Shown here one piece after another: positions 16,882 to 64,000 of a DNA stretch of 64,000 nt. Source of the stretch: Dictyostelium discoideum (lineage: Eukaryota); contig CM000152.2 of assembly GCA_000004695.1 (NCBI GenBank), positions 864,001-928,000 of the forward strand. The letters run 5' to 3'. The position numbers and the translations under genes are program-made. Positions within the stretch are counted from its first letter, which is position 1. Each line of letters starts with the position of its first letter. The notes beneath the pieces were generated by a model. The model had not been told where the DNA came from, ran no database searches, and was given only the letters and a program-made list of their open reading frames with translations.

Positions 16882-17322
16882 CTATGCCGAGATAAAAATA
16901 TTTTGAACCCAGAGACGAGCAGCATGATCACCTTTGTTGATATAACCAAAGTGATAACTTTTACCAGGAGCAATTGAAACATAACTAGCCATATTAATAT
17001 AGAAACCATTTAATTGAGCACCCCAAATTTGACCAGCATTTAACTTAGCATCAGTTGCAATAACAATATCTTTAATTGTACGATGAGTATGATTAATAAC
17101 TTCAACATCAACTTTAACACTTGGACCATCAGCACCGTCAACCCAACGTTCAGTTACAGTTTGAACAATTGTTAATTCTTCACAAACATAAACACATTTG
17201 AAAATACCATTATCACAAATACATGAGTGACCTGGTAAACAAGCATATTTACCACATTGGAAATTTGCAGAAGTAACACTAATAGCTAACAAAGCTAATA
17301 AAATTGCAATTAAATATTTCAT
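16882..17322 (-). CDS. Small secreted Cys-rich CBM49-like protein (146 aa), paralog of 2013..2453 in opposite orientation.
   Basis: MKYLIAILLALLAISVTSANFQCGKYACLPGHSCICDNGIFKCVYVCEEL...; same domain order and about 85% identity to the other paralogs. Confidence 0.85.
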   Translation of the reverse strand: MKYLIAILLALLAISVTSANFQCGKYACLPGHSCICDNGIFKCVYVCEELTIVQTVTERWVDGADGPSVKVDVEVINHTHRTIKDIVIATDAKLNAGQIWGAQLNGFYINMASYVSIAPGKSYHFGYINKGDHAARLWVQNIFISA

Positions 17323-17548
17323 TTTTTTTCCCTTATTAAAAAATATTATATTTTAATTATTTATTTTGAATGAAATTTTATATTTAAATTTTTAATTTAT
17401 ACAATTTTTTTAAAATAGAAAAAATAATACTTTAATTAATTCATTTATAAACAAAAAATTAATAATTGAACCCCAATAATTAATCTATAAAAAAAAAATT
17501 AAAGTTTTTAGCAAAAAATACAAAACATTCTACAAACAATTTAATGAT

Positions 17549-17958: not shown

Positions 17959-18399
17959 TTATTTTGAGATATAAATGTTTTGAACCCAGAGATGAGCAGC
18001 ATGATCACCTTTGTTGATATAACCAAAATTGTGAGTTTTGTATGGAGCAATTGAAACATAACTAGCCATATTTAATAAGAAACCATTTAATTGAGCACCC
18101 CAAATTTGACCAACATTTAATTTTACATCAGTGGCAATAACAATATCTTTAATAGTATGTGGAGAATGATTAAAAGCTGTAACATTAACTTTAACACTTG
18201 GACCTTCAGCACCGTCAACCCAACTATCAGTAATAGTTTGAGTGATCACTAATTCTTCACAAACATAAACACATCTATAAACTCCATTATCACAAATACA
18301 AGTATGACCTGGTAAACAAGCATATCTACCACATTGGTAATGAGCAGAAGTAACACTAACAGCTAATAAAGCTAATAAAATTGCAATCAAATATTTCAT
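17959..18399 (-). CDS. Small secreted Cys-rich CBM49-like protein (146 aa), tandem paralog of 16882..17322.
   Basis: MKYLIAILLALLAVSVTSAHYQCGRYACLPGHTCICDNGVYRCVYVCEEL...; complete ORF, same family. Confidence 0.85.
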   Translation of the reverse strand: MKYLIAILLALLAVSVTSAHYQCGRYACLPGHTCICDNGVYRCVYVCEELVITQTITDSWVDGAEGPSVKVNVTAFNHSPHTIKDIVIATDVKLNVGQIWGAQLNGFLLNMASYVSIAPYKTHNFGYINKGDHAAHLWVQNIYISK

Positions 18400-19101
18400 T
18401 TTCCTTTTCTTATTTATTTTATTAATTAATTAAAAAAAAAAATAAAAAAAAAAAACTTCTTTCTTTTTATAAGAACCTTTTTCAAAAAAAAAAAAAATAA
18501 AAAAAAAAATAAAATTGGTACGACATATAAATATAAAATAATATAATAAAGCCCCATAATTTATCTATATAAAATATACAAAGTTATATGTATTAATTTG
18601 TGTTTTTATTAAGATTCTTTAATCTATTAAATATAGATTATCTTTTATTTTTTTCACCCCTCTCTTTGTATTTCCATCATGAATTTTAACCATATATATA
18701 TATATATAATTAAAACAAGCAAAAATGAAAAATAATAAAAACAATGAAAAAAAAAAAAAAAAAAAAGTGTGGTGCTATAATAATAAATACAAGATGATGA
18801 ATGATTATCAATTAAATCTTATAAAAATATAAACAAATATTAAATAAATAAACAAAACACCAACAGTTTACAAAACAATACAAAGCTTTCTTTTTTTTAA
18901 TTTTATTTTATTTTATATTTTATTTATATAATTTAAAAAAAAAAAAAAGATATACCAAGAATTTAATTTTTTTTTAATTTTTTTTTTTTTTTTTTATTAA
19001 TGGTTGATTTATTTACCATAATAGTACTATTTATTTATTTATATTTACAAAAAAAAAGGTATATTTATTTCTTAATAGAAATATATAATACCATTGCTAT
19101 T

Positions 19102-21093: not shown

Positions 21094-22826
<1,733 letters not shown>

Positions 22827-26637: not shown

Positions 26638-29525
<2,888 letters not shown>

Positions 29526-31357
29526 TTTTTTTTTTTTTTATTTGTTTGTTTGTTTTTTTTTTTTTTTTTTAGTGTATACTTTTTTAAATATTTTAAATTA
29601 TATTTTTACTATTATTTATTTTATTTTTTTTTTTTACTTTTTTAATATATTATTGTTTTTATTTTTGTATTATATTTTGTGTGGTGATTTATGTGTATAA
29701 ATTTTAAAATAATAAAAAAAAAAATAAATAAGAAAAATGATGGAATTAAATGATGGTTATTACAAAAAAAATAAAAAATAAAATAAATAAAAAAAAAGTA
29801 AAACTAAATTTAAATTAAAAAATGCCTATATTATTATTATTATTATTATTATAATTTGTAAAAAAAAAAAATATATGTGTGTTTAGTGTGGTGGGTGATA
29901 AAAATTGGGATATATAATAGGTCTATTTTGGTTATTTTTTTTTTTTTTTGATGTGTTTATAAATAAAAATTTTATTGAACCAAAAAAAAAATAAAAAAAT
30001 AATAAAATAAAAAGAATAAAAAAATAATAAAAAAGGAATTATGAAAACAAAAACAAAAAAAAAAAAAAAAAAAAAAAGTAAAAAAAAAAAAAAAAAAAAA
30101 AAGTTGAAAATTTGACGTTTTTTAAATATTTTTTTAGCAATCTAGATTTCAAAAAACTTTTTTTTATTTTTAGCAACAATTATGACAAAAACGAAAAAAA
30201 AAATAAATAAAAAAAAAAAAAATAAAAAAAGATGAAAAAGTTGGATGGTTTGGCATTGAGCAATGGTTTTTTTTTTGTCATATTAAACGTTGTAACATTA
30301 CACAAAAATTATCAAAAAAAAAAAAAAAAAAATATTGTTATTGATCACTTAAATTTCGAATAATCATTTAAATATTCTTGAAGTTTTAAAACCAATATCA
30401 TATAGGTTATGTTTTTTTACAATTAAAAAAAAAAAATAATAATAAAAATAATAATAAAAAAAAACAGATAATAATTTAAAACATCTTGTCATATTTTTTT
30501 TTAATTTGATGTTTATAAATCTTTTTGATTATTAATAATATTTTTTTTTTTTTTTTTTTTTTTTTTATTTTTAAAAATTGATATTATTATATATTCATTA
30601 GAAATAACTATTTTAAATGATTTTAATTCAAATATTATGAATGGTGGTGGATCAATTAATATGCTATTTAAAAAAATAATGGTAGAATATTGATAATAAT
30701 TATTATGATTGTAATGAATTGATTTAAGATACTTCAATAATTTATCCACCACTTTAAAATTATAATCAAAAATCAAAAACATTTATTTCAAAAAAAAATT
30801 AGAATAATAAAGAATATCTCATTATTTTACAAATTTGTAAACACAGTAATATATATATATATATATATATATTTGAAAGCCTGTATCAATGATAAAACAG
30901 TTTTTTTTTTATTTTTTTATAATTTTTTTTTTTATTAGTATAATAAATAAATATTATCTATCTCTTTTATTCATTTATTTTTTTATTTTTTTATTTTTAA
31001 CTTTTTATTTTTTTATTGTTTTTACTTTTTTTTGAGTATTGGTGATTTAAATTATTGTCACCACCTCCTCTAATTAAATTTAGAATTGAAAGATTTTATT
31101 CATTTAGAATAGAAGTTGGTACACTGGTATGAGTTACCAATTCAGTTTTACTATTTGTGATTCTATGAGTTGTTGCATACAAACTTTTATAAGTGAAAAT
31201 GCATAATCTTCTCATGTAAGGATAATACGATTGTTGAACAGTTGGTTGAGTTGAATCGATTTAAATTACTGATAATTGAGTTGAAATGGTTTGAATTACT
31301 GGTGGTTGATTTGAATTTGTTGGGGGATTACTGTTGTTTGATTATACATTGGATTAT

Positions 31358-31484
31358 CAAGATTGAACATGATTATTAGAATCTAAAATAGTTGAGTTGA
31401 TCTTCAAAAACAAAAAAAGTTTTAAAAGTTCAGCTATGCTATTAACTCAACTATTTTAGATTCTAATAATCTTGCTCAATCTTG
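31358..31484. repeat. Imperfect 41-bp inverted repeat (39 of 41 positions match, extendable to about 48 bp) with a 45-bp spacer. It is a candidate transposon or MITE remnant, or a hairpin-forming element.
   Basis: Left arm caagattgaacatgattattagaatctaaaatagttgagtt; right arm aactcaactattttagattctaataatcttgctcaatcttg. Confidence 0.6.
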
Positions 31485-31570
31485 ATCATCCAATGAATAG
31501 CCTAACAGTAGTGATCCCAACAAATTCAACCCAACCACCATTAAAATTATAGGGTTTTGTTTTAATTTAA

Positions 31571-45474: not shown

Positions 45475-46003
45475 TTCTTTTTTTGGATATTTGTTTTTTT
45501 TTGTTTTTTTTTTTTTTTTTAAATAAAAGTTTTTTGTGTGTGAAATATGAAAATAAAAATTAAAAAACGTTAGAATATCTTTTTTTTTTTTTTTTTTTTT
45601 TGATTTTTTTTTTATTTTATTTTATTTTTATTTTTATTTTATTTTTTTTTTTTATTAAATGATGGTAATAATCAAATAATTCAATAAAATAAAAAAGTAA
45701 AATAAAAAAAAAAAAAATTTAAATAAAAACTTAATAATACAGTGTACCGATAATTATATATATTTTTTATATATATTTTTTTTTATTTTATATTTTTATT
45801 TTTATTTTTATTTTTATTTTTATTTTCTGATTCCAAAAGAAAAAAGATTTTTTTATTTTTCTATTTTTCTATTTTTTTTTTTTTTTTTTTTTTTTCTTTT
45901 CATTTTTTTATTTTATTTTTTTTTTCCTTCACAACCAGTTATAGTAATAAAGATTTATAAATATAATCTTCATATTCAAATTATTTTCTCTTTGTGTCTC
46001 TTG

Positions 46004-46006
<3 letters not shown>

Positions 46007-46056
<50 letters not shown>

Positions 46057-46079
46057 CAGCAGTGTGGTAGCTACCACAC
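46007..46079. promoter_or_regulatory. T50 homopolymer immediately followed by a perfect 18-bp palindrome gtgtggtagctaccacac (46062..46079). It sits in the divergent promoter between SDHAF4 (-) and the PH-domain gene (+).
   Basis: Read directly; the palindrome is fully self-complementary and GC-rich relative to the flanks. Confidence 0.55.
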
Positions 46080-46260
46080 AACAGAGAGAATTTTAATCCT
46101 AAAAAAGGTATCCACATAACTTTATTTATTTAAATTTTTAATTTTATTTTTTATTTTTTATTATTTTTATTTAATATATTTTATTTTTTATTATTTTTTT
46201 TTTTAAAGTTTATTTATTTATTTATTTATTTTTTTTTTTGATTTTTTTTTTCTTTTTTTT

Positions 46261-46316
46261 ATAACCATACACATACACTCACTATCACACACACACATAC
46301 ACACCACCACACATAT
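46261..46316. promoter_or_regulatory. CA-rich element (ccatacacatacactcactatcacacacacacatacacaccaccacaca), about 290 bp upstream of the PH-domain gene ATG.
   Basis: A C/A-only island in AT-rich DNA. CA-rich (CAE-type) elements are established cis-elements in Dictyostelium developmental promoters. Confidence 0.4.
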
Positions 46317-46603
46317 ATATTTATATATATAAAAAATATATATAAATATACATATATATAACACCACAAGCACAAAAATTCATCCACATATTTTTAACTT
46401 TATTTTTATTTTTTTCCTTTTATTTTATTAGTACATATAATTCAATATATATATATATAAATACTAATATATATTTTTTACTCCAACCAGAAATAAAAAT
46501 AAAATAAAAATAATAATAATAATAATAATAAAAAAAATCTAAATAATAAAAAAATCAAAAAAAAAAAAAAAATAAAAAAAAAAAAAACAAATCATTAAAA
46601 ATA

Positions 46604-49450
<2,847 letters not shown>

Positions 49451-49722
49451 AATTATTATAAAATAATAATAAAAAAAAAATAATTTATAAATAATAATGA
49501 ATTATTTACGATTCTAGTTGAATAAAAAATAAAATTGACTACAATCAAAAAAAAAAAAAAAAAAAATTAAATAATTAAAAAACTAAAAAACTAAAAAAAT
49601 GGTGTATTTGTTTCTTTTTTTTTTTTTTTTTCCATTTTCTTGTTTTGTTCTGTTTTTTTTAATTTTTTTTTTAATTCCATTTTTTTTTTTTTTTTTTTTT
49701 TTATTTTCTAAAAATAAAAAAA

Positions 49723-50075
49723 ATGAAAAAACCATATAATAAAAAAGTAAATGTAAACAAATGTATGGCAAATGATTTGATTATTACTTTTCCAATGAGA
49801 GATGAACAAATTATAGCCAAACTAGATTCAATCAAAAGATGGAAAAATGTAAATAAAAATCTTTATTCAATTGATGATTTTTGTTCATTATTGAATGAAT
49901 TTGAAATGATTCAATTTTCAATAGGAGGAAGCCCTTTGTTTAATAAAAACAATGGTAAACAATATAATTATTTAAAAGAATACAATTTGACTTCAACTTA
50001 TTTTAAAATGATTCAAAGAGAAAGAGATTTTTCAGTTTTAACAAGTTTTAAATCTGATATTATTAATAATGTAGG

Positions 50076-50107
<32 letters not shown>

Positions 50108-51845
50108 AATAATGAATAATATTTATTTATTTATATTTATTAATTTTTTTTTAAAAAAGGGAATTCAAAAAAAATCAAATGGATTACGTACTCAAATTTT
50201 AGGTAAATTAAATGATGATGGATCACCAATTTTTAAAAAAGATACAATACTTAATCATGTAGCTGAGGAATTAATAATAGATATGAAAGAAAATAAAGCA
50301 ATTGAGATTAAACATGAATTTTTTAGAGATATAGATTTTAATAGATTAAATCGTAAAACAAATAAAATTGGTGAAAATTGGATCACTGTGGATAAATTTC
50401 CATTTGGTTCACTTGTTATTCCAAAATTTAAAGAAATTTGTCACTCTGTTTTAAAAGAATTATTTTTAATTAATAGAGATGATACACTAATAAAAATAAA
50501 TTCATTAGCAGAAGATATTTTAATTGGATTTATTGATAGTTGTTTCAATGATAAAACTCCAGTTGGAAAGGAAATTTTATTTGAACTTTTTAAAAACCAT
50601 ATACTTAATAATAATAAAACTGATGAAATTGAATCATTATTCCCAATTGAAAGAATAATAAATAGTTGTATTATTAGAGATGATTGGTTTAGATTTAATT
50701 ATGGTAAATCAATAGCACAAGATTTATTTTTACCACATTTTCAAGATAGTTTTTCAATAAATGTTTATGAAAATTATCAATTATTCACACACAAAAATAT
50801 TTCTAAATTATCAGATAATGTATTGTTAAAGCATACAAATAGGAAAAAGTCAGAATCAATAGTGATTGGAGAATCATCAATTGTTAATAAGGAAAAGTTT
50901 ATTGAAAATTTTCATTTGGTTACAAATAATATGTTTAATGATTTTTCAAAAATTCCAAAAACATGTTATTTTATTGGTGGTATACTTACAGCATGTTTAA
51001 CAGATTCAATTAATGAAGATGAATATAGAGATAGCGATATTGATGTTTGTTTTACTGGTTATGAGTCAAATGATATTGTAGAGTTCGTTGAAACATATTT
51101 TGGATCTTTGGATGAATTACAAACTGATAAAACAACTACGATTCATGGTGATCATTTAACAATTTCAAAGTATTATCCAAATAGACATGTTCAAATTAAT
51201 CTTCACTTTTATCCTACACTTGAGAGCATTTTAGTAGGTGTTGATATCGATGCATCTTGTTTTGCATTCAATGGAAAGGATTTATACTGTTTGGAAAGAG
51301 CTATGCATTCAATAAATTATAGTATTAACATTGCTTGTGAATTTAACTTTAATGTTAGAGGTAATGGCCATTATCAAAAACGGTTGGTTAAATATTTAGA
51401 TCGTGGTTTTCATATCTACTATTTACCAACACCACAAATTAATTATTTTTTTAGTGATATTATACTTAAGGTGAGTGAAAATGATGGGTTCTCTCCAACA
51501 CTTAATCAGAATGGAATTGCTTTATTAGCATCAGCAAGCCTATCAAAACAAATTCTAAAAGAGTTAAAGAAACCATCATTTTCAATTCCTTATGGTCCAT
51601 CATATGATAAAATAAGTACAGATTTGTTCATTAGATCAACCTATAAATCTATGTATAATGGGTATTCAACACCAATGTGTCATAGAATTATAGATACTGT
51701 TGGTGAAGGCGAAGATTCAATTAATACCATTTTATTTGAAACCAGATCTATCGAGAGTCTATCTTTTAATAGATATTCATGGGAACAACATATCACCAAT
51801 GAAGCTTTAAGATCAAATTTATTTAATTATAACCAATTTTTTTAA
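49723..51845 (+). CDS. Hypothetical protein, about 678 aa. Structure is join(49723..50070, 50160..51845). It has no confident family. The C-terminal half carries a G-G...D-x-D pattern compatible with a Pol-beta-like nucleotidyltransferase fold; this is speculative.
   Basis: The 126-aa ORF ends ...SFKSDIINN at a GTAGGT donor (50071). The acceptor AAAAAAG| at 50158-50159 restores GIQKKSNGLRTQILGKLNDDGSPIFKK..., the 577-aa ORF frame minus its junk N-terminus. Motifs are CYFIGGILTACLTDSINEDEYRDSDIDVCF and later LVGVDIDASCFAFNG. Confidence 0.5.
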
Positions 51846-51939
51846 ACTTTAAATAAATAAAAAAAAAAAAAGTAAAAAAACACCAATTGAATCAAAATTT
51901 ATTAATTTAAAATTAAAGAATAAAATTTATTTTTAATTT

Positions 51940-52760
51940 TTTTTTTTGTTTTTCGATTTTCATTTTCGTTTGTAATTTTTTATAGGCCCATATGGTTGGT
52001 TATATATTTGATTCAGAAAGTTTTGCTTTGTGGAAAGTTTTTTTTTTTTCCCTTCTTTGGATAAAAATGCAACTATTAATTAATATTTGTCGACACCACC
52101 TTTGTTACCAAGTGGGTTATTTAAATTATTAGTACTTTGATTATTTGATTTTTCAAAATTAATTGAAATTGATTTTGAGTTGATGTCATCAAAGGTTTTA
52201 TTTAAGGCTGATGATGAGGATTTATTTAAAATTTTTGTTAATGTAGTGAAAATCATTTTTTATTTTAATTTATTATTTTTATTAAATTAAACTATATTTT
52301 TTTATAAAATTATAATATTTTATTATTTTAAATTTTATTTAATTTAATTATATTTGTTTTGAATGAATAGAAATGAAAAATCATTTTTTTTATTAAATAC
52401 TTTTTAAAAAAATAAAAAAAATAAAATAAAAATAAAAAAATAAATAATTAATGTTAAAAATAGAATTCTATTTTAATAGTAACTTAACAAGTTGATGCTC
52501 CCCAATGGATTATTAAAAAAACGAAAAATAAGTTAATTTTAACATTATATTGATGATAAAATTGGATGGAAATGATGGAGAGAAAAATATCAAAAATAAA
52601 CATTCAACTGAAAATTATCAATATTATGATCGTTGTTATTTAGTATAACTATTTATTGAACATATAATATTCATTTTTACACTAATATTTCACTTTTAAT
52701 TGTGACTAATCCACAAATAATTTACCCCTTTATTTTTTAAATTATTTGTTTTTATTTTTA
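51940..52760. repeat. Copy 1 of a diverged roughly 0.85-kb repeat unit.
   Basis: Roughly 85-90% identity by eye to 54140..54990, e.g. cgtttgtaattttttataggcccatatggttggtta... versus cgtttgtaatattttttataaacccatatggttggtta..., through ...tttacactaatatttcacttttaattgtgactaatccacaaat. Confidence 0.7.
52080..52256 (-). CDS. Conserved small ORF (58 aa) inside repeat copy 1: MIFTTLTKILNKSSSSALNKTFDDINSKSISINFEKSNNQSTNNLNNPLGNKGGVDKY. Coding status is unproven.
   Basis: ATG-to-TAA ORF on the minus strand. A 59-aa counterpart lies at 54286..54465; it differs by several synonymous substitutions and a clean 3-nt (one-codon) deletion, which preserves the frame. Confidence 0.35.
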   Translation of the reverse strand: MIFTTLTKILNKSSSSALNKTFDDINSKSISINFEKSNNQSTNNLNNPLGNKGGVDKY

Positions 52761-52958
52761 AATTCGAACTAAAATAATTTTGTTAAACCCCTAAAAAAAA
52801 AAAAAATTAAAGTGCATTATGGGTTAAATAGTTTTTGTATTGTGGAATAATTTAAAAAATTTGGGTGTAAAAATGATTATTATTTTTTACCCAATAAAAT
52901 TAGTGCCAATTATATTAGTTATTTATCAGTTGGAAATACCTCATCGATCTGATTTAAT

Positions 52959-53011
52959 AAGTTAAATGGGGATTATCTAATCATTCAATTTAGATAATCC
53001 TCCTTTAACTT
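52959..53011. repeat. Near-perfect 22-bp inverted repeat (20 of 22 positions match) with a 9-nt loop: aagttaaatggggattatctaa / tcattcaat / ttagataatcctcctttaactt.
   Basis: Read directly. Confidence 0.5.
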
Positions 53012-53099
53012 ATTTTTGGGTTTTAAACTATTTTTATCGAAAGCATTGATTTGTTAAATAACTATACTGTGATTATCAGTTCTATTTATAACTTTTTTT

Positions 53100-53143
<44 letters not shown>

Positions 53144-54139
53144 AAATAAAAAAAAAAAAAATTTTTTAATCAAAAATGAAAATTCTATTTCATTACCCAA
53201 ATAATTAAAAACAAATAAAAAAACGAAATTAAAATATAATCAACCTAAAAATGATTTCAATACTTTAACTAAAATTTCAAATAAAACATCATCATCATCA
53301 TCTTCAAATACAAGATTTGGTATTAATTCTAACTAGTTCAAATAAATTTTGGTAATAATTTAAAAATGATAGCTTCATTGTCAATTAATAAACTTGGTCC
53401 AAGAGGTGGTATTTGACAAATCAAAAATTCAATTTTCAATTATAAAATTATGCTCTCGATTGTGCACGAAAAAAAAAAAAAAAAAAATTAAATAAAACTT
53501 TCATTTTTCTATGATTTTAATTTATTTTTTAATTTTATTATATTTCAACTATTATTTGTATTTAATTTATTTTAATTTACCACCATTGAAAAATCAAAAA
53601 TATAATTAAAAAATAAAATTAGTTAAAAAAAAAAAAAAGTATGAAATGATTTTTGGAACAATTATTATACAAATATAATCAATTTTTTACACATTGTTCA
53701 ATTGATTGAAAAATAATATAATAACCCCATATTATATTTTATATGATTTTATTACACTAGAGTTTTATTGAACAACCCCACCACAAAAAAAAAAATAAAA
53801 AAAAATAATTTAATAATTAAATAAAAAAATTGAATTATTTGTGGACTTACCGCCATGGCAAAGATGAATGATTATAGATTGTATAATTGAATTATGAACA
53901 ATAATAATATTTATTTTCATTTGTCACTATTTTTGGTTTATTGTTTTTATATATTTTTACACGTTTTCAAATCGATCAATAAAGATTTATCATCTTACTA
54001 TAAAATAAAAAGAAATACAACAAAATAAATTAAAAAAATTAAAATTAAATAAAATAAATTCCAATATGAAATTATATTATCTTTAAAAAAAAAATTAAAA
54101 TTTAATTAAAAAATAAATTTTTTTTTAAAGTTTATTTTA

Positions 54140-54990
54140 ATTTAATTGTTTTTCAATTTATTTTTTCGTTTGTAATATTTTTTATAAACCCATATGGTTG
54201 GTTATAAATTTAATTCGGAAAGTTTTGTTTTGTTGAATTTGGAGTGGAAATTCCCTTTTTTTTTCTTTGGATAAAAATACAATTATTAATTAAAAGTTCT
54301 TGATATACCACCTTTGTTACCAAGTGGATTATTTAAAATAATAGTACTTTGATTATTAGATTTTTCAAAATTAATTGAAATTGATTTCGAATTGATATCA
54401 AAGGTTTTATTTAAGGCTGACGATGAGGATTTATTTAAAATTTTTGTTAATGAAGTGAAAATCATTTTTTATTTTAATTATTTTTATAAACTATTTAGAT
54501 ATTATCTTATTAAAATAATAATATTTAATTATAAATTTTTTTTTTTTAATTGTATTGAGTAATGAATAGAAATGAAAAATCATTTTTTTTATTAAATACT
54601 TATTAAAAAAAATAAAAATTAAATAAAAAAATAAAAATAAAAGAAAATAATAAAATAAAAATAATAAATGTTAAAAATAGAATTCTATTTTAATAGTGAC
54701 TTATCAAGTCGATGCTTGAGAATGTATTATTAAAAAACGAGAAATAAGTTAATATTGTAATTAAATTGTAATTAAATTGATGATATAATTGGATCGAAAT
54801 GATGGAGAGAAAAATATCAAAAATAATATTCAACTGAAAATTAACAATATTATGATAGTTGTTATTCAGTACAATTATTTATTGAACAAATAATATTCAT
54901 TTTTACACAAATATTTCACTTTTAATTGTGACCAATCCACAAATTACAAACAAATAATTCACCCCCTTTTTTATTTTAAATTATTTGTTT
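54140..54990. repeat. Copy 2 of the same unit, about 2.2 kb downstream in the same orientation. It is followed by a roughly 340-bp copy-specific insertion.
   Basis: Collinear with copy 1 including the small ORF. After about 54990, homology resumes only at ...ccaaccaaaataattttgtt (about 55360) relative to copy 1 ...cgaactaaaataattttgtt (52770). Confidence 0.7.
54286..54465 (-). CDS. Conserved small ORF (59 aa) inside repeat copy 2: MIFTSLTKILNKSSSSALNKTFDINSKSISINFEKSNNQSTIILNNPLGNKGGISRTFN.
   Basis: Paralog of 52080..52256; same strand, same position within the repeat unit. Confidence 0.35.
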   Translation of the reverse strand: MIFTSLTKILNKSSSSALNKTFDINSKSISINFEKSNNQSTIILNNPLGNKGGISRTFN

Positions 54991-55081
54991 TTTATTATTT
55001 TTTCTTTTTTTTTATTTTTTTTTTTTAGTGGTTGAACAAATAAACTTAAGGTTTCAATTCAAAACACAATTATTAAAAATA

Positions 55082-55275
55082 AAAAAAAACCCAATTCAAT
55101 GATTAATAATTAATATTAAAAAAAAAAAAATCAATATTTCTATAAAATAAAAAAATAAAAAAATAAAAATAAGATTTCAATGAAATTATTATTGACTTTA
55201 ATCTTAAATTCCTACTCTAAAATTTTTTTTATTTTTTTTTTAAATAATTATTAATCATTGAATTGGGTTTTTTTT
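55082..55275. repeat. Perfect 31-bp inverted repeat pair (55082..55112 and 55245..55275) flanking a 132-bp spacer, located within the copy-2-specific insertion.
   Basis: aaaaaaaacccaattcaatgattaataatta and taattattaatcattgaattgggtttttttt are exact reverse complements. Confidence 0.7.
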
Positions 55276-55656
55276 AATCCAAATACTTTGGTAAAATTAC
55301 TAACAAAATGTTCAAGTATATTTATATATATTTATTATTTTTAAATCATTAATTTTTAGATCCCAACCAAAATAATTTTGTTTATTTTTTATATAAAAAA
55401 AAAAAAATAAAAAAAATAAAAAGAATATAAAAAAATAAAAAAATTAAAAAAAAGTGATAAGATTAGATCCATGGAGAAATGGTGATTATTCAATTAATAT
55501 CACAAATGAAAGTATTAAAATCAAATGAACAAATTAATAATCAAACTTTTTAATTATTAAAACAATACAATACAATACAATACAATTTATTTATTTTTTA
55601 ATTTTTTTTTTTATTATTTTTTTTATTTTATTTTATTTTTATAAAGATAATTTGAA

Positions 55657-58533
55657 TCAGTTTGCATTTGCAAATTCTCTTGAAACGAGAATAGCTTCAT
55701 CGATTTTATCTAATTTAGAACCAACACCTTGAGCAACATCAACTTTACCACCACCTTTACCACCTAAAACTTCGGTAACCTTTACAACCCAAGCATTTGC
55801 AGTTAAAGTTTTTGAGATTTCAGAATCTTTTGGAACGATACCAATGCAAGTAACTTTACCTTTTTCTTCATCTGGACTAATTAACATGATTGCAGTCATT
55901 GGTGATTTAGTTTGAATTTTTTTAATGGTTTCAGTGATTAAAGGAGTATTTGAATTGAAGTTTACTAAATCTACGAAAACCTTTGGTTGAGATTTAGCCA
56001 ATTCTTCAGAGGTTTTCTCTAAATAGGTTTGAGCTTGTTGAGCCAAGATGGTTTCTTGTTCTTTGACTTGTTTTCTTTGGAGTGCTTGAACTTCCTTCAA
56101 AGTTTCAACCAAATTCATACGAACACTTGCTGAAATGGTGACAACCTTGAGAAGATCTAATAAGGAAACGATTTCCTTGGCAAGTTCTGAACCTGATAAT
56201 TTGAGGGCATTATTGAATCTGACTTCCAATTCTTTATTGAGTTCTATAGCAGAGGCAGCTTCAGAACCAGTGACAGCGACGATACGACGTACACCAGCAC
56301 CCAAAGTTTCTTCAGAGGTAATGGTGAAGAGTTCAGCTTGTTTAGTGTTTGACAAATGTGTACCACCACAAAATTCGATGGAATAGTTTGCCCATTCTGG
56401 ATTGGTTGGATTTTCAATCAATTGTTCAACTGGTACACCAACAGAGACAACTCTAACTGGATCTGGATAAACTTCACCGAAAACTGCACGAAGACCATTG
56501 ATCTTTTTAGCGGAAGCCAAACCGACCTCTTTGGCGTGAACATCGAGTTGTTTAAAGATTTGATCATTAACGATTTGGTCAATTTTAATGAGTTCATCCT
56601 TGGTGATTGCTCTACCAAATGAAAAATCGAATCTGAAACGTTGAGCGTCGACAAAGGAACCACGTTGATCGATACCATCACCTAAAATATTCTTGAGTGC
56701 GTAATTGACCATATGAGTTGATGTATGATTTGACATAATTGGTGAACGACGAGTATAGTCGACGGTGAGTTCAACACGATCACCAACTTTCAAAGAATCG
56801 CATTCATAGGAGAGGTAACCAATATGAAGTACATAACCACCAAATACTTTACAATCCTTGACGTCGAAAGCAGTCTTTTGATCATCGATGAAACTCAATT
56901 GACCAATATCATAGATTTGACCACCTTGTTCAGCGTAAAAGTTTGAATTCTCTAAAACTACACCAATTAAGGTACCCTTTGGAGCAGTGTCAACAAATTC
57001 CTTACCATTCCAAATGGCTTTGATAACTGATTGAATTTCATGTTGTTTATATTTGAATGAATCATCGGTTGGTTTGATATCGTTATTCTTTAACCATGCA
57101 TTTGCTTCAGCACCGAGTGTTAATTCGACCTTCTTTTCCTTTTGACGTTTACGATCGATTTCAGATTGAGCTTCACAGAGTCCTTCATAACCTTTGATAT
57201 CGACTTTGTAATTCTTTTCTTCGGCCATAATGGTGGTTAAATCGATTGGGAAACCATAACAAGTTGAAAGGAAATAAGCATTCTCGGCAGAGAGGGTATT
57301 ATTTACACTCTTTTTGATCATTTTTTCAAATTCAACAATACCTTTCTCCAAAGTTTTATTGAACATATCCTCCTCACGAGTGAGTACCATTTTGATGTGT
57401 TCTGGTTTCTTTCTGAGTTCTGGGAAGAATTCACCAAAGTTTGCAATGACAACATCAACCAATTTAGAGAAGAAACCAGCTGGTGCATTTAATTTTTGTT
57501 TACCATAACGGACGGCACGACGAAGGATTCTACGGAGGACTTGACCTCTACCATCGACGGATGGGGCGGCACCATCAGCAATTGAGAATGTGAGTGTACG
57601 AATGTGATCGGCAATGACACGATAGGCCATATCAACTTGTTGTGTATCTTCAGCACCGACTTTTCCACCGTATGGTTCTGGATAACCAGTTACCTCTTGA
57701 ATGGCGGCAAAGATTGGCATAAAAACATCGGTATCATAATTGGTTGGTACTTTTTGAATGATTGAAGTTAAACGTTCGAGACCCATACCAGTGTCGACGT
57801 GTTTTTGTGGTAATGGACGTAAGGATTTATCAGCCTCACGATTATATTGAATGAAAACCAAATTCCAAATTTCAATCAAAGTTGGGTCATCAGCATTGAC
57901 AAAGGAGGCACCATCACGACCTTCCACTTTGTCATAGTGGATCTCTGAACATGGACCACATGGACCTTGGTCACCCATCTCCCAAAAGTTCTCTTTCATA
58001 CCGAATGGGAGCACACGTTCCTCTGGTAAATATTGCAACCAAAGGTTCTTTGCTTCGAGATCTGCTTCCAATCCTTTCTCTGGGTCACCTCTAAAGTAAG
58101 TGACATATAAACGTTCTTTATCTAATTTGTATACCTCTGTCAATAATTCCCATGCCCAAGTGATTGCCTCCTTCTTAAAGTAATTGCCAAATGACCAATT
58201 ACCCAACATCTCAAAGAAGGTGTGATGATAAGTATCCTTACCTACATCATCCAAATCATTATGTTTACCACCTGCACGAATACATTTTTGACTATTGACT
58301 GCTCTCTTCAATTTTGCTTGTTCTGATTTTGGATTAACTTGTCCTAAAAAGATTGGTTTAAATTGATTCATACCTGCATTTGCAAATAATAAAGTTGGAT
58401 CATCATGTGGAATTACTGCTGATGATGGAACAAATGTATGTTCACATTTCTCTCTAAAAAAATCGATAAAAGTTTTTCTAATTTGATTAACATCCATTTT
58501 TTTTCTTCTTTTATATTTTCTCTCTCCTTCCAA
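55657..58533 (-). CDS. alaS: Alanyl-tRNA synthetase, cytoplasmic type (class II aaRS). It is 958 aa from the first ATG or 946 aa from the second (MDVNQIRKTF...). Single exon.
   Basis: An N-terminal catalytic core (FVPSSAVIPHDDPTLLFANAGMNQFKPIFLG; motif 2/3 region), the tRNA-recognition domain, the editing domain with HTSTHMVNYALKNILG (HxxxH) and ...CGGTH, and a C-terminal C-Ala/DHHA1-like domain. It is collinear with eukaryotic AlaRS throughout. Confidence 0.9.
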   Translation of the reverse strand: MEGERKYKRRKKMDVNQIRKTFIDFFREKCEHTFVPSSAVIPHDDPTLLFANAGMNQFKPIFLGQVNPKSEQAKLKRAVNSQKCIRAGGKHNDLDDVGKDTYHHTFFEMLGNWSFGNYFKKEAITWAWELLTEVYKLDKERLYVTYFRGDPEKGLEADLEAKNLWLQYLPEERVLPFGMKENFWEMGDQGPCGPCSEIHYDKVEGRDGASFVNADDPTLIEIWNLVFIQYNREADKSLRPLPQKHVDTGMGLERLTSIIQKVPTNYDTDVFMPIFAAIQEVTGYPEPYGGKVGAEDTQQVDMAYRVIADHIRTLTFSIADGAAPSVDGRGQVLRRILRRAVRYGKQKLNAPAGFFSKLVDVVIANFGEFFPELRKKPEHIKMVLTREEDMFNKTLEKGIVEFEKMIKKSVNNTLSAENAYFLSTCYGFPIDLTTIMAEEKNYKVDIKGYEGLCEAQSEIDRKRQKEKKVELTLGAEANAWLKNNDIKPTDDSFKYKQHEIQSVIKAIWNGKEFVDTAPKGTLIGVVLENSNFYAEQGGQIYDIGQLSFIDDQKTAFDVKDCKVFGGYVLHIGYLSYECDSLKVGDRVELTVDYTRRSPIMSNHTSTHMVNYALKNILGDGIDQRGSFVDAQRFRFDFSFGRAITKDELIKIDQIVNDQIFKQLDVHAKEVGLASAKKINGLRAVFGEVYPDPVRVVSVGVPVEQLIENPTNPEWANYSIEFCGGTHLSNTKQAELFTITSEETLGAGVRRIVAVTGSEAASAIELNKELEVRFNNALKLSGSELAKEIVSLLDLLKVVTISASVRMNLVETLKEVQALQRKQVKEQETILAQQAQTYLEKTSEELAKSQPKVFVDLVNFNSNTPLITETIKKIQTKSPMTAIMLISPDEEKGKVTCIGIVPKDSEISKTLTANAWVVKVTEVLGGKGGGKVDVAQGVGSKLDKIDEAILVSREFANAN

Positions 58534-59435
58534 AATATCTATATTTAAAAAAAAAAATAAATAAATAAATTAAAAAGAAAAAAAAAAATGAAAAAAAAAA
58601 TTTTTGTTTTGAAAAAAAAAAAAAAAAAATAAAAATAAAAAAAAAATTAAAAAAATTTTAAAGTTGTCGGTTTATAAAGAAATTAAGAAAAAAAAAAAAA
58701 TTAAAACTTAAAATTTATTTAATAAAATAAAAACAAAAAAGGTTACAAAATATTTTACTAAAGACCTATTCTTATCAAATTCCTAACTTATCAATTTTTT
58801 TTTTATTTTATTTTTATTTTATTTTTTTATTTTATTTTTATTTTTTTTTATTTTTTATTTTTTTAATTTTTTTTTAATTTTTTTTAATTTTTTTTTTGAT
58901 TTCTTTTTTTTTATTATTTTTGTGGTGAATTGGGGTGATATGTGTAAACCATTCACACCAATCGTTTTTTTTTTTTTTTTTTTTTTTTTTTTGGAATTAA
59001 TTTGGTAATTAAATTTTTATACAATTTTGGTATAGATTTTAAATCCTCACTTACTTTATTTTTTTCTTAAAATAACAAAAATTAAAAAAAAAAAAATAGA
59101 TAAAAAATTATTTTATTTTTATTTTTATTTTAAGAAATTTCTTTTTTTTTTTTTCTAACAAATCTGATTTTAACCAAAAATTTAATTGTTAGAATTTAAT
59201 TATTCATCATTAATTTTTATTTAATTCACTTATTTTTGATTAGATTTAAAAATAATAAAAAAATAAATGTTCATTAAATTATCTCATTTTTTTAATTAGA
59301 TTTAAATTAAAAAAATTGTTTTATTTTAATATGGGTTTTTTTTATTATTATTAAAAAAAGTAAATTATAAAAAAAAAAAAATAATAAAAAAAAAAAAAAT
59401 AAAGATTTTTATTTTAATCTTTAATGATTTTTATT

Positions 59436-59743
59436 TTAATCTTTAATTAAACATTCTTTTGGGCATTTGAAAGTATATTTAACACATTCACTTTTATCTC
59501 TTTGTTTTCCATTATCATCTGAACAACCATGATTTTTCAAACATTGTTTGATACAAGCTTTGTGATCACTTTCAATATCTGCCATACAAATTTGATTTGA
59601 TGACATTAAAGCTAAAAATGCGATAATTGCAACTAATAATAATTTATAATTCTAATAATTAAAAAATTAATAAAAATACTAATTCTTTTTTTCTTATCTT
59701 TGTTTAAAAAAAATAAAAAAATAAAAAAATAAATTCCTACCAT
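59436..59743 (-). CDS. Small secreted 8-Cys protein, about 72 aa. Structure is join(59436..59651, 59741..59743). The start codon alone forms exon 1: ATG|GTAGGA...TTATTAG|.
   Basis: The minus-strand frame NYKLLLVAIIAFLALMSSNQICMADIESDHKACIKQCLKNHGCSDDNGKQRDKSECVKYTFKCPKECLIKD* has a clear signal peptide but no in-frame ATG. An ATG sits 89 nt upstream, immediately followed by GTAGG, with an AG acceptor right before AATTATAAA. Coordinates are approximate to about 1 nt. Confidence 0.5.
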
Positions 59744-59829
59744 TATTTAAAATTTTTTCAATCTTATTTACTAAATTTAATTTTTATTCCTCTATTTATA
59801 CCTTTTTTTTTTCAAAAAAAAAAAAAAAA

Positions 59830-59863
<34 letters not shown>

Positions 59864-60370
59864 ATAATAATAATAATTATAAAAAAAAAAAAAAAGATTT
59901 AAATGATTAATAGACAATTATTTGAAAATAAAATTATAATAAATTATGATGTATTAAATAATTCATTGACAATCTAGAAAAATTTAAATTATTTTATATT
60001 ATTTACCACCAAAAAAAAAAATAAAAAAAAAATAAAAAAAATAAAAAAAAAATAATAAAATAATAATAACAAAAAAAAATAAAAAATTCAATGTTGTGGT
60101 GATTGAATTACCATGGTTTATGATACATTAGTATTTTTACTATTAATACCACACTATTATTCTTAAAACGATTATATTCCAACATTTTTTTTTTTATTCT
60201 TTCCAACCCAATTTCCAATTATCCCCGCCTTTTTTTTTTTTTTTCATATTTTTTTTTTTAATTTTTTTTTTTTTTTAATTTTTTTTTTTTGTCAGTTTTG
60301 GTTACCAAAAAAAAAAAAAAAAAAAAAAAAATCAAAAAAATAATTTATTAATAATAATAATTAATAAATA

Positions 60371-60425
60371 ATGGAAGATATTTCAACTATCAAAAAGCTA
60401 GAAGGATTATCAGTTCATTGCGAAG

Positions 60426-60456
<31 letters not shown>

Positions 60457-61018
60457 TAAGGAAAATATAAATAATGATGATAATAACATCAATCCAAATC
60501 GAAATGCAACATCATCACTTTTAAAAGGAAATATTCAACAAGTTAAAAAGAAAAAAGTATTTGCTAGATTACACTTATTTAATAGAGATGGCACTGTTAA
60601 ACAAATTGTTGAAATGAGAAAATATAAATTTATAATTGGATCGTATGTTTTTTTTTTTTTTTTTTTTTTCCTAAAAACTCTCTCTCTCTCATTTCATAAT
60701 ATATTAATATAATGAAAACACTGTAGTGATCAAAAATCAACGGATATTTTAATAACAAGACCAGGTGTTTATTCAAATCATGCAGAGATTATTTATGATA
60801 AAGAAGTTAGAAAATTTTATTTAAATCCATTAGTTGATCCAAGTATATCAGATACAATTAGAATTAATTTCATACCATTCATTAATAAAAAGGAAGTACT
60901 TGGTAATAATGATATAATTTCAATTGGTTTAAGAGCATTCAGAATTGAATTTTTTGCACCAGTTTATGTTGATAATTTAATTTTACCAAAGAATATTCAA
61001 CCACAACAACAACAACAA

Positions 61019-61050
<32 letters not shown>

Positions 61051-62602
61051 GGCACCAACCGCACAGAAAAAATTAAAACAAGAAGTTGAACATATTTTAA
61101 CAGCAGCAACAACAACACCAACAACAACAACAACAAAACCAAAAAAACTAAAAACTGCACCACCAACCACTGTAGCATCATCATCAACAATACCAAAAAC
61201 AACAACAACAAAAAAGCAAGCAATAGAACAACCATCAAAATCAAATTTGAAATCTAGCCAAAATAAGCTTTCAACAACCACAACAACAACAATAACTTCA
61301 AAACCACCATTAAATAAATCATCAATTGATGGTGATACTCGTTCAGAATCAAGTAAAGCATTACAAGGACTAAAACCTAAAGAACAAAAAAAAGATATAA
61401 TGAAAAGCTTAATCAGTTCCAAAAAAGCAAATACTCATGAAGAAAAAGAAGAAGGTGAAAGTGAAGAAGAAGAGGAGGAGGAAGAAGAAGAGGAAGAGGA
61501 AGAGGAAGAAGAAGAAGAAGAAGAACAATTAGAAGATAAACAGAAACAAACAAAAACTCCTATTTCACAAAATAAATCAGCATCATCAAATATTAAACCA
61601 TTATCAAAAACTTCTAAATCAAATCCACCACCACTATCAGCAGCAACAAAAAGCAATCCAGTTGTCAAGAAAATCACATCGACAACAGTAACGAGAACAA
61701 CTAAAAAAGCAGATACTGAAACAAAACAAGAAATTAAAATAACTAAATCATCCACTACCACCAAACAACAAACACAGGAAGAAATTGAACAAGAATTAAA
61801 ACTTGAATCAATTAGAAAAAGAATTGAACAATTTATAAATAAATTTGAAAAAGAAATTAATGATAATGATTTTAAAGATTTAGATGAGGGTAAAAGAAAA
61901 ATTAAGGAATCACTTGATTTCATATCAAAAACTAAATATGAGTTCCAAGGAACTACTTCAAATCCCGGTGATGTGGAATCCACTCCATTGGATAAATGGT
62001 TCAAGAATATTCCATATGAAGATTTTGTAGATTCTTTCAAACTTAAATATTATTCCATTATTACTGAACCAGTTTCAATAACATCAATATTAAATAAACT
62101 AAAGAGTGGTCCAAACTATCAATTGGCAGAGGTTTTAAAAGATTTTAAACAAATGTTAATAAATGTTACACTTTATCATAAAGAACCAAATGAATATTGG
62201 TGGATCTCTCATCAATGTAATATTCAATTCTATAAATCTTTATTAGAAACAGGTTTAATAACACAAGATCAATACCAAATTCAATATCAAACTTCAAATA
62301 ATGAAATAGTAAAGCTTGATAAAACTTTAAACTTAGTTCCAAAATTAGTTGTCGTTGAAAATAATGATGAAGATGATAATAATGATGATGAAGGAAGCAA
62401 AAAAGCAGTTCTTGTTGATGAAGATGAAGATGAATGTTTAAACAATCAAAATAATCCAACAACATATGATAGTGATGGTGATTTTGTAACCAAACAAAGT
62501 GATCAAGAAAGCGATGAAGAAAGCGATGAAGAAAGCGATGAAGAAAGCGATGAAGAGAGAGATCAACTTTCTGAAGAAGAAGATCAAGAAGCAACCAACT
62601 AA
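60371..62602 (+). CDS. FHA-domain plus bromodomain protein, about 715 aa. Structure is join(60371..60642, 60727..62602). It has poly-Q/T linkers, a poly-Glu stretch, and a C-terminal acidic (SDEE)n tail.
   Basis: Exon 1 ends ...FARLHLFNRDGTVKQIVEMRKYKFIIGS at a GTATGT donor (60643). Exon 2 after CACTGTAG| reads DQKSTDILITRPGVYSNHAEIIYDKEVRKFYLNPLVDPSISDTIRINFIPFINKKEVLGNNDIISIGLRAFRIEF (FHA). It stays open through the TTG-started 451-aa ORF, which contains a bromodomain-like PLDKWFKNIPYEDFVDSFKLKYYSIITEPVSITSILNKLKSGPNYQLAEVLKDFKQMLINVTLYHKEPNEYWWISHQCNIQFYKSL. Confidence 0.65.
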
Positions 62603-62624
62603 AAGATAAAATAAATAATTAAAG

Positions 62625-62656
<32 letters not shown>

Positions 62657-62877
62657 AAAACAAAATAAAATATGTTTGATATTAAAATTTATAATCCCCC
62701 TAAGATTTTAATTTAAAATTTAGATTTATTTTATAGTTTGTAATTTTATTTTTGTTTTGTATTTAAATAATTTTTTTTTTTTTTTTCCTTAAAATTTTGT
62801 TGTTGGTATTATAATGGTGTATTTCGATATTCTTTTTTTTTTTTTTTTTTTTTTGTTTTGCAAATGTATATTATTTT

Positions 62878-64000
62878 TTACTTATTTTCTTTTGGTTTTT
62901 CTTCATCTTTTGGAGCTTCATTTACTGAAGTTTCTTGTTGTTCGCTTGATGGCTGTTGTTCGCTTGATTGTTGTTGTTGTTGTTGATCATCTTGAGTTGT
63001 TGGTTGTTTTTCATTTTTATCATCTACTTTAGTATTTTCATCATCTTGTTCAGTATGAGTTGTAATTTCTTGTTGTTCTTTAGTTAATTCATTAATTTTT
63101 TCTTTTACCATTTCTTGACCTTGTTCAGTTGAAAGATCAGATGGTAAATCTTTGACTACTTCATTCAAAACATCTTGTGGAATATGTTCTAAAGTATCTT
63201 CTAGGGCTTCATTTGTGGTGACACCTGGTGAAAGGGTGAAAGCACGAGATAAAATTAAAATGGATGGTGGTAAAGATTTATTTAGGGAAAGATCTAACCA
63301 TTGATCCAATTGACCTTCAATGAATTTTCTATTGTAACCTTCGACTTTGAAACCACGAGTGATGGCAGCATCGACCAATTCCTCCAAAGTCAATGAGCTA
63401 AGACCCTCTTTCTTGATGAGGATATCGTCTTGTTTGATCTTATCCAATTTTTTATAGATTTGAGCTTTAAGATACTCGTTGGAATACCATTTGGAGATGA
63501 AATTGGAACCTGCTAAATATCTATGCATCATCAAGAGTTGTGAACGAGTGATCTTCTCCATGATGATATCATCCTTAAAGTATTGAGACATCTTTAAAAC
63601 CTCATCAGAGGTGACGGTTTGACCACTCTTTACTTTGGTCATGAAATTGAAAAAGTCTTCGGTTTTAGTGTCCTTCTTGGATTCGGAGCTAATCTCATGT
63701 AAGAGATCCTTTAATTGACCACGAACCTTTGAATTACTCTTGGATCTAACGGTGGCACCCTCTAATCTTTCATTCTCCCATGTGTAGGTTGATGGTAAGA
63801 GATTTGGGAATAATTTCAAAATGAATGGTAATGCCAACTCTAAAAATGGTACCAATACAATGATAACAAATGGTACCAATCTCATTACATCTGCAGAGGT
63901 TTGAACCAATAATCTTCTCTCTCTTCTTGTTAATGTATGACCTTTAATAACTCTTTTAATCAATGCAACTGCAATACTAATATTCTTTCCCAATAATTTA
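62878..64000 (-). CDS. letm1: LETM1-family mitochondrial inner-membrane protein (K+/H+, Ca2+/H+ exchanger component). This is the 3' portion only; the gene continues beyond the window end.
   Basis: TRRERRLLVQTSADVMRLVPFVIIVLVPFLELALPFILKLFPNLLPSTY matches the LETM1 TM/RBD core (cf. human [42 protein letters not shown]). A coiled-coil and an acidic C-terminus follow. The frame is open to position 64000. Confidence 0.8.
   Translation of the reverse strand, partial: KLLGKNISIAVALIKRVIKGHTLTRRERRLLVQTSADVMRLVPFVIIVLVPFLELALPFILKLFPNLLPSTYTWENERLEGATVRSKSNSKVRGQLKDLLHEISSESKKDTKTEDFFNFMTKVKSGQTVTSDEVLKMSQYFKDDIIMEKITRSQLLMMHRYLAGSNFISKWYSNEYLKAQIYKKLDKIKQDDILIKKEGLSSLTLEELVDAAITRGFKVEGYNRKFIEGQLDQWLDLSLNKSLPPSILILSRAFTLSPGVTTNEALEDTLEHIPQDVLNEVVKDLPSDLSTEQGQEMVKEKINELTKEQQEITTHTEQDDENTKVDDKNEKQPTTQDDQQQQQQSSEQQPSSEQQETSVNEAPKDEEKPKENK

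Follow-up and report, generated by a model that had tools for sequence, protein, structure and literature searches.

Quasi-palindromes and inverted duplications produced by replication template switching are an established mutational class. Two other kinds of described system are close in form to a short hairpin in Dictyostelium: MITEs and fold-back transposons, in which terminal inverted repeats surround a short non-coding element, and the hairpins that give rise to small RNAs. The known Dictyostelium miRNA sources are intergenic hairpins and the multicopy thug-S element (PMC6161686, PMC4894637), and a folding energy below -0.2 kcal/mol/nt has been used as the criterion for Dictyostelium miRNA hairpins (PMC6161686). 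We compared with these systems a perfect inverted repeat found in a 64,000-nucleotide (64-kb) stretch of D. discoideum DNA, referred to below as the window. We found that the repeat is real and far beyond chance, and that the hairpin is an ordinary one-off, strain-variable, lineage-specific stretch in a fast-evolving spacer, with no sign of a mobile element or a conserved RNA.

The inverted repeat and its surroundings

The window has a G+C content of about 20%, and the spacer around the hairpin 11-18%. The alanyl-tRNA synthetase (AlaRS) protein encoded in it is identical to the protein of D. discoideum AX4. The hairpin is found 380-575 bp past the AlaRS stop codon, beyond the 3' flank that is conserved between species (approximately 55466-55656), and approximately 620-810 bp upstream of the ATG of a small open reading frame described below. 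Its parts and the neighbouring gene are as follows:

55082-55112, no strand: left arm of the perfect 31-bp inverted repeat, AAAAAAAACCCAATTCAATGATTAATAATTA
55113-55244, no strand: AT-rich 132-bp spacer (loop) between the arms
55245-55275, no strand: right arm of the perfect 31-bp inverted repeat, exact reverse complement of 55082-55112
55657-58497, minus strand: AlaRS gene (open reading frame and protein match)

The earlier note on this DNA had described two 31-bp segments that are exact reverse complements 132 bp apart, and a stem-loop of about 194 nt; both the repeat and this geometry (31-bp arms plus a 132-bp loop) were confirmed. Perfect pairing of the arms stops at both ends, with no perfect extension in either direction. 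Longer arms of approximately 60 nt (55079-55138 and 55219-55278) are 85% complementary, the extension consisting mainly of A-runs against T-runs. In the outer parts of the loop A-runs lie opposite T-runs, and a small internal hairpin is located at approximately 55170-55205.

Several measures showed that the repeat is not random. Its 23-nt non-homopolymer core was found at only two sites in the 64-kb window when up to 3 mismatches were allowed, with 0.00 further sites expected. After homopolymers were collapsed, the arm was 26 nt long, as against a maximum of 18 nt in 40 Markov-simulated, composition-matched windows. Folding of 241 nt around the repeat as DNA gave z = -8.0, and folding of 381 nt as RNA bore out the hairpin on both strands (z = -4.5 for the minus strand and -5.4 for the plus strand). 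The repeat is not an assembly artefact, because the independent chromosome-level assembly L001 (GCA_054883475.1) carries the identical sequence, matching window positions 45645-64000 at 99.7%; this agreement of two assemblies, together with the diverged orthologues described below, ruled the artefact out.

Other repeats were observed in the window. A long near-perfect intergenic hairpin at 31290-31555, with arms of approximately 110-120 nt and a perfect 28-bp core (31371-31398 and 31444-31471), is clearly more G+C-rich than its surroundings and folds as RNA at -120.5 kcal/mol (z = -14.2). From its sequence it looks much more like a pre-miRNA or siRNA-type hairpin, or an inverted gene-fragment duplication, than the 55082-55275 repeat does. 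It was not found in the miRNA tables of PMC11014262 and has no sequence relation to the 55082-55275 repeat. A repeat of approximately 440 bp occurs in three copies that are 87-92% identical (2004-2452, inverted with respect to the others, 16889-17326 and 17960-18408). Long tandem arrays of period 3 (22069-22315, 28061-28227 and 47710-47918), 97-100% identical to one another, are typical Dictyostelium triplet repeats.

Tandem duplication and the extra DNA of copy 2

Loci of relatives were taken from the 90% AlaRS protein cluster, which holds D. discoideum isolates, D. cf. discoideum, D. citrinum, D. dimigraforme and D. firmibasis. The AX4-type window was compared with two other D. discoideum isolates (L004 and L007), two D. 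cf. discoideum genomes (including L006) and three further species. The next conserved gene beyond AlaRS has a Gad2 domain. D. dimigraforme, D. citrinum and D. firmibasis have 106-348 bp between AlaRS and Gad2, the two D. cf. discoideum genomes 1.6-2.0 kb and the three D. discoideum genomes 3.4-3.8 kb. The locus offers a modest example of a spacer growing very fast, from approximately 0.1-0.35 kb to 3.8 kb. In D. purpureum (L002) there is no synteny downstream of AlaRS, and this species is uninformative for the spacer. Across window positions 51870-55466 and the loci of the relatives, the spacer was enlarged by the gain, and then the tandem duplication, of a unit that contains a small open reading frame. 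This frame encodes 57-62 aa. Its indels all keep the reading frame, it remains intact in each of the six D. discoideum copies, and it may be a young gene specific to the lineage. Downstream of AlaRS, a CAATA pentanucleotide array (55540-55585, ACAATACAATACAATACAATAC) is several-fold longer in L004 and L007 and is a length-polymorphic microsatellite.

The duplicated unit is approximately 0.9-1.4 kb long, and about 0.9 kb of homology (copy 1 approximately 51894-52760, copy 2 approximately 54090-54990) is approximately 85% identical between the copies. The elements of the two copies to which we refer are:

51894-52832: copy 1 of the duplicated unit (core homology approximately 51975-52760), from alignment
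52080-52256, minus strand: small open reading frame of copy 1, paralogue of 54286-54465
52754-52784, no strand: element B1 in copy 1, 27/31 identical to B2
54090-55482: copy 2 of the duplicated unit, hairpin-bearing segment included, from alignment
54286-54465, minus strand: small open reading frame of copy 2, 59 aa, annotated as a gene in L004
54993-55056: left part of the reported insert, a T-rich tract and element A (AGTGGTTGAACAAATAAACTTAAGGTTTCAA), ancestral
55057-55392, no strand: copy-2-specific DNA, approximately 300-380 bp, its right edge indistinct because an A-rich tract continues to approximately 55440
55352-55382, no strand: element B2, the right-hand anchor, ATTTTTAGATCCCAACCAAAATAATTTTGTT

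Both copies are present in all three D. discoideum genomes, and a single partial unit is present in D. cf. discoideum L006. In a neighbour-joining tree the copy 1 sequences clustered together and the copy 2 sequences clustered together. Orthologues of copy 2 differ by 4.6-7.5% and paralogues by 11-16%, and the duplication is therefore older than the split of the isolates.

Within the window, copy 1 positions 52729-52753 align with copy 2 positions 54968-54992, after which copy 2 has 359 extra bp (54993-55351) before a 31-bp block realigns with 27/31 identity (52754-52784 with 55352-55382). The 20-mer that had served as right-hand anchor in the earlier note has only one other match in the 64 kb, which is this same block. 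The extra DNA in copy 2, previously put at about 340 bp, is thus real, but its left part of approximately 60 bp reflects a loss from copy 1. This left part (54993-55056) contains AGTGGTTGAACAAATA. The single-copy unit of L006 has a 37-bp exact match to 55006-55042 (TTTTTTTTATTTTTTTTTTTTAGTGGTTGAACAAATA) as well as TTAAGGTTT, and in L006 element A runs directly into the homologue of the region downstream of copy 1. Element A is also present in copy 1 of L004 and L007 and in every copy 2. Since only the copy 1 of the window lacks it, 54993-55056 is ancestral and was lost there; the deletion in copy 1 that had been named as a reason to drop the insertion reading is what we found for this element. 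In the place where copy 1 of L004 and L007 and the outgroup carry element A, the copy 1 of the window has B1, which resembles the post-hairpin sequence B2. The 18-bp core of B2 is missing from copy 2 of L007. The non-equivalent positions of B1 and B2, together with this missing core, suggest that the copies exchanged sequence by gene conversion, or that they are alternative deletion derivatives.

The remaining part of the extra DNA (55057-55392) had no counterpart in any copy 1, in L006, in L008, elsewhere in the window or in the other Dictyostelium loci examined, 269,563 bases in all. Local alignment of the region downstream of copy 1 with the insert and the post-insert DNA gave poly-T matches only, equal to those of random AT-rich segments. 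As read from these alignments, the within-window indel is a composite of copy-2-specific DNA and ancestral sequence lost from AX4 copy 1. Comparison of two paralogues within one genome can mislead on insertions, and here the apparent insert is partly a loss from the other copy.

The region downstream of copy 1 has a hairpin of its own at 52955-53015, with arms of approximately 24 bp (AATAAGTTAAATGGGGATTATCTAA ... TTAGATAATCCTCCTTTAACTTATT). It can also be made out in the unit of D. cf. discoideum (L006 spacer 1828-1857, opposite strand) and is therefore older and better conserved than the 31-bp repeat.

The hairpin among isolates

All three D. discoideum isolates carry the hairpin-bearing segment in their copy 2, so it is not a recent insertion; these isolates differ by 7-13% in this region. 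In L007 both arms are present, with 24 of the 31 core positions paired. All seven unpaired positions are one-sided changes (4 substitutions in the left arm and 2-3 in the right), with no compensatory change among them, and one of the seven mismatches may stem from the way T-runs of unequal length were aligned. In L004 a deletion of approximately 170 bp (window 55223-55390) takes the right arm, and the left arm has 2 substitutions. This deletion spans from a T-run to an A-run, its ends not being set by the arms. Two positions at the inner edge of the repeat (55113/55244 and 55115/55242) are paired in the other isolates and unpaired in AX4, so the ancestral repeat was probably approximately 34 bp long, and AX4 too has probably lost pairs at this edge.

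To calibrate these changes, copy 2 substitutions were polarised against copy 1, which gave 0.016 derived changes per site in the AX4 lineage and 0.040 in the L007 lineage. At the AX4 rate the 62 arm nucleotides should have undergone 1.0 change, with a probability of 0.37 for none, so the 31/31 perfection of the AX4 arms can be explained without selection and without a very recent origin. In L007 the arms carry 6-7 changes where 2.5 are expected (P = 0.015 when changes are counted singly, approximately 0.1-0.25 when adjacent changes are counted as one event). Between AX4 and L007 the arms diverge by 11.3% and the adjacent non-arm DNA by 13.2%. The folding energy, -0.25 (plus strand) and -0.28 (minus strand) kcal/mol/nt in AX4 at 37 C, is -0.16/-0.20 in L007 and -0.06/-0.10 in L004.

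Judged from these sequences, the repeat was perfect in the common ancestor of the isolates and has decayed neutrally since. As it was still perfect when the isolates diverged, the inverted repeat postdates the duplication, and the proposal that it is younger than the copy 1/copy 2 split is supported. The companion proposal, that perfect identity of the arms points to a young event or to conservation, was not: the segment predates the isolate split, the arms diverge like their flanks, and pairing has fallen to 24/31 in L007 and been lost with one arm in L004.

Origin of the hairpin and its known relatives

We consider it rather probable that the hairpin is a single-locus, neutral local inverted duplication in a fast-turnover AT-rich spacer, now decaying. 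A quasi-palindrome with arms initially of approximately 34 bp, approximately 130 bp apart, would have arisen between the AlaRS gene and the D. discoideum-specific small gene, in copy 2, after the tandem duplication, which is specific to D. discoideum, and shortly before the sampled isolates diverged. A local replication error, by template switching or fold-back copying, seems the most likely cause, rather than transposition. The arms would then have originated in place; a test of their descent from the ancestral sequence at this position (start of the D region) was not significant. Neutral drift would have followed, leaving the 31 bp perfect in AX4 by luck, 6-7 one-sided mismatches in L007 and one arm deleted in L004. 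AX4 copy 1 has separately lost 54993-55056 and carries a B2-like 31-mer there, probably by deletion or by gene conversion between the copies. Four of the 31 positions differ between B1 and B2, above the expectation for a recent conversion in the AX4 lineage; this divergence fits an A-X-B arrangement ancestral to both copies, of which copy 1 lost parts independently.

The last point bears on an older origin, in which the hairpin segment would predate the duplication. The copies would then differ solely because copy 1 and the outgroup had undergone repeated deletions, which the palindrome and the flanking direct repeats would have favoured. The copy 1 of the window has demonstrably lost element A, the B1/B2 divergence is at the level of the paralogues and not of a recent exchange, and independent deletions have occurred at the spot (copy 2 lost approximately 170 bp in L004 and 18 bp in L007), so that B1/B2 and the L004 and L007 deletions favour repeated loss of the copy-2-specific DNA. 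Nevertheless, at least 2-3 independent losses would be required as against one gain, and on the present alignments a single gain in copy 2 appears more parsimonious. A repeat with at least 31-34 bp perfect in the ancestor of the isolates is also hard to fit with an age above 11-16% divergence, unless the arms were homogenised, and we regard the older origin as improbable. Transposition would equally place a single gain in copy 2, which is the most parsimonious reading of a segment that neither any copy 1 nor the single-copy outgroup has. The element would be a non-autonomous MITE or fold-back relic of approximately 194 bp with terminal inverted repeats of 31-34 bp, which entered copy 2 before the isolate split and is now immobile and decaying. 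Its size, AT-rich interior and long perfect terminal-type repeats fit, there is no open reading frame or other coding capacity between or in the 31-bp arms, and no homology to the ancestral sequence at the spot was detected. It is set against such a relic that no 2-10-bp direct repeat flanks the exact ends of the hairpin (...ATTAAAAATA / AATCCAAATA...), where AAT matches only with a 1-base shift; that the copy-2-specific DNA, at approximately 300-380 bp, much exceeds the 194-bp unit and has edges that differ from the arm ends; and that BLAST found no second copy of the repeat in 269,563 bases of Dictyostelium DNA, the 64-kb window among them. A clean empty site was seen in none of the isolates: what is missing from the paralogues and the outgroup is a larger, imprecisely bounded segment, and the L004 deletion runs from T-run to A-run, not from element end to element end. 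We therefore think transposition unlikely, and the MITE-like insertion of a delimited 340 bp put forward in the earlier note is not supported, in view of its ancestral left 60 bp, the missing target-site duplication and the lack of another copy in approximately 270 kb of Dictyostelium DNA.

Two candidates met in these searches were rejected. A 12-bp direct repeat, TTTATTATTTTT (54991/55331), resembles a target-site duplication at the boundaries of the insert; its left copy derives from a 4-bp AX4-specific indel, and the pair encloses ancestral sequence. Pattern scans of metagenome and viral collections gave no match to the repeat, and a Pontibacillus match in a prokaryote collection is at chance level for a degenerate 23-mer in 596 Gb.

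The hairpin might also be a young RNA gene, a proto-miRNA or hairpin siRNA, whose transcription, by read-through or on its own, would give a 31-bp perfect stem that a Dicer-like enzyme could cut. D. discoideum miRNAs mostly come from intergenic hairpins after T-tracts (PMC6161686), new amoebozoan miRNAs have been reported from unusually long, near-perfect hairpins (PMC11014262), and the AX4 hairpin clears the -0.2 kcal/mol/nt criterion on both strands. Yet accepted ddi-miRNA hairpins fold at -0.43 to -0.70 kcal/mol/nt around 41-91-nt loops, and the AX4 hairpin combines 11% G+C and -0.25 to -0.28 kcal/mol/nt with a loop of 132 nt. Neither the tables of hairpins and reads in PMC6161686 nor those of mature miRNAs, coordinates and failed candidates in PMC11014262 contain the arm sequences, and a full-text and supplement search of the Dictyostelium small-RNA literature gave no match. 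Rfam 15 returned no match at the gathering threshold for the window and none even at E <= 1 for 52700-55660, and a tRNA scan of the window found none. Pairing was not kept across relatives, with seven unpaired positions in L007, one arm deleted in L004 and arms diverged to the level of the flanks. A functional RNA formed by the stem-loop of about 194 nt that the earlier note had listed is not upheld by these results, and we hold a young hairpin RNA gene to be highly unlikely. That the three isolates display a newborn dsRNA locus in three states (AX4 intact, L007 eroded, L004 half-deleted) we would credit with only a very small probability. If it were true, and small RNAs from the arms existed, the three states would form a natural series showing how small-RNA genes are born and die in Amoebozoa, and the polymorphism would be a useful natural experiment on the birth and death of miRNAs; none of the present results suggests this. 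Apart from sequence shape, neither the MITE nor the small-RNA reading has positive support. The local inverted duplication that we prefer would mean that striking perfect inverted repeats can arise and persist by chance in very AT-rich, indel-prone Dictyostelium spacer.

Set beside the described systems, the hairpin has partial likenesses to each. With D. discoideum pre-miRNAs (ddi-mir-1176/1177; DrnB/RbdB-dependent) it shares an intergenic position, T-rich surroundings and a perfect stem segment of Dicer length (PMC6161686, PMC11014262). It differs from them in its far lower G+C content, weaker energy per nucleotide and larger loop, in not being among the published miRNAs or candidates, and in a pairing that varies within the species, one isolate being without an arm. 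Thug-S is likewise a Dictyostelium repeat with hairpin-derived small RNAs (PMC4894637, PMC6161686), but, compared by description and not by sequence, it is multicopy and has an intron, whereas the hairpin is single-copy in the DNA examined. Like MITEs and fold-back elements, the hairpin is short (approximately 194 bp), non-coding and AT-rich, has long perfect terminal-type repeats and is missing from the paralogous copy. Unlike them, it comes without a target-site duplication, extra copies in the examined DNA or an empty allele, its arms decay neutrally, and the copy-specific DNA has edges other than the arm ends. Finally, although arms of 31-34 bp with some 130 bp between them lie towards the upper end of the size range of template-switch quasi-palindromes and no donor relation to local sequence could be demonstrated, the hairpin shares with that class its nature as a local single-copy inverted repeat free of transposon hallmarks, its setting in low-complexity, indel-rich DNA, and the clustered adjacent substitutions in its arms (55092-93 and 55096-97).
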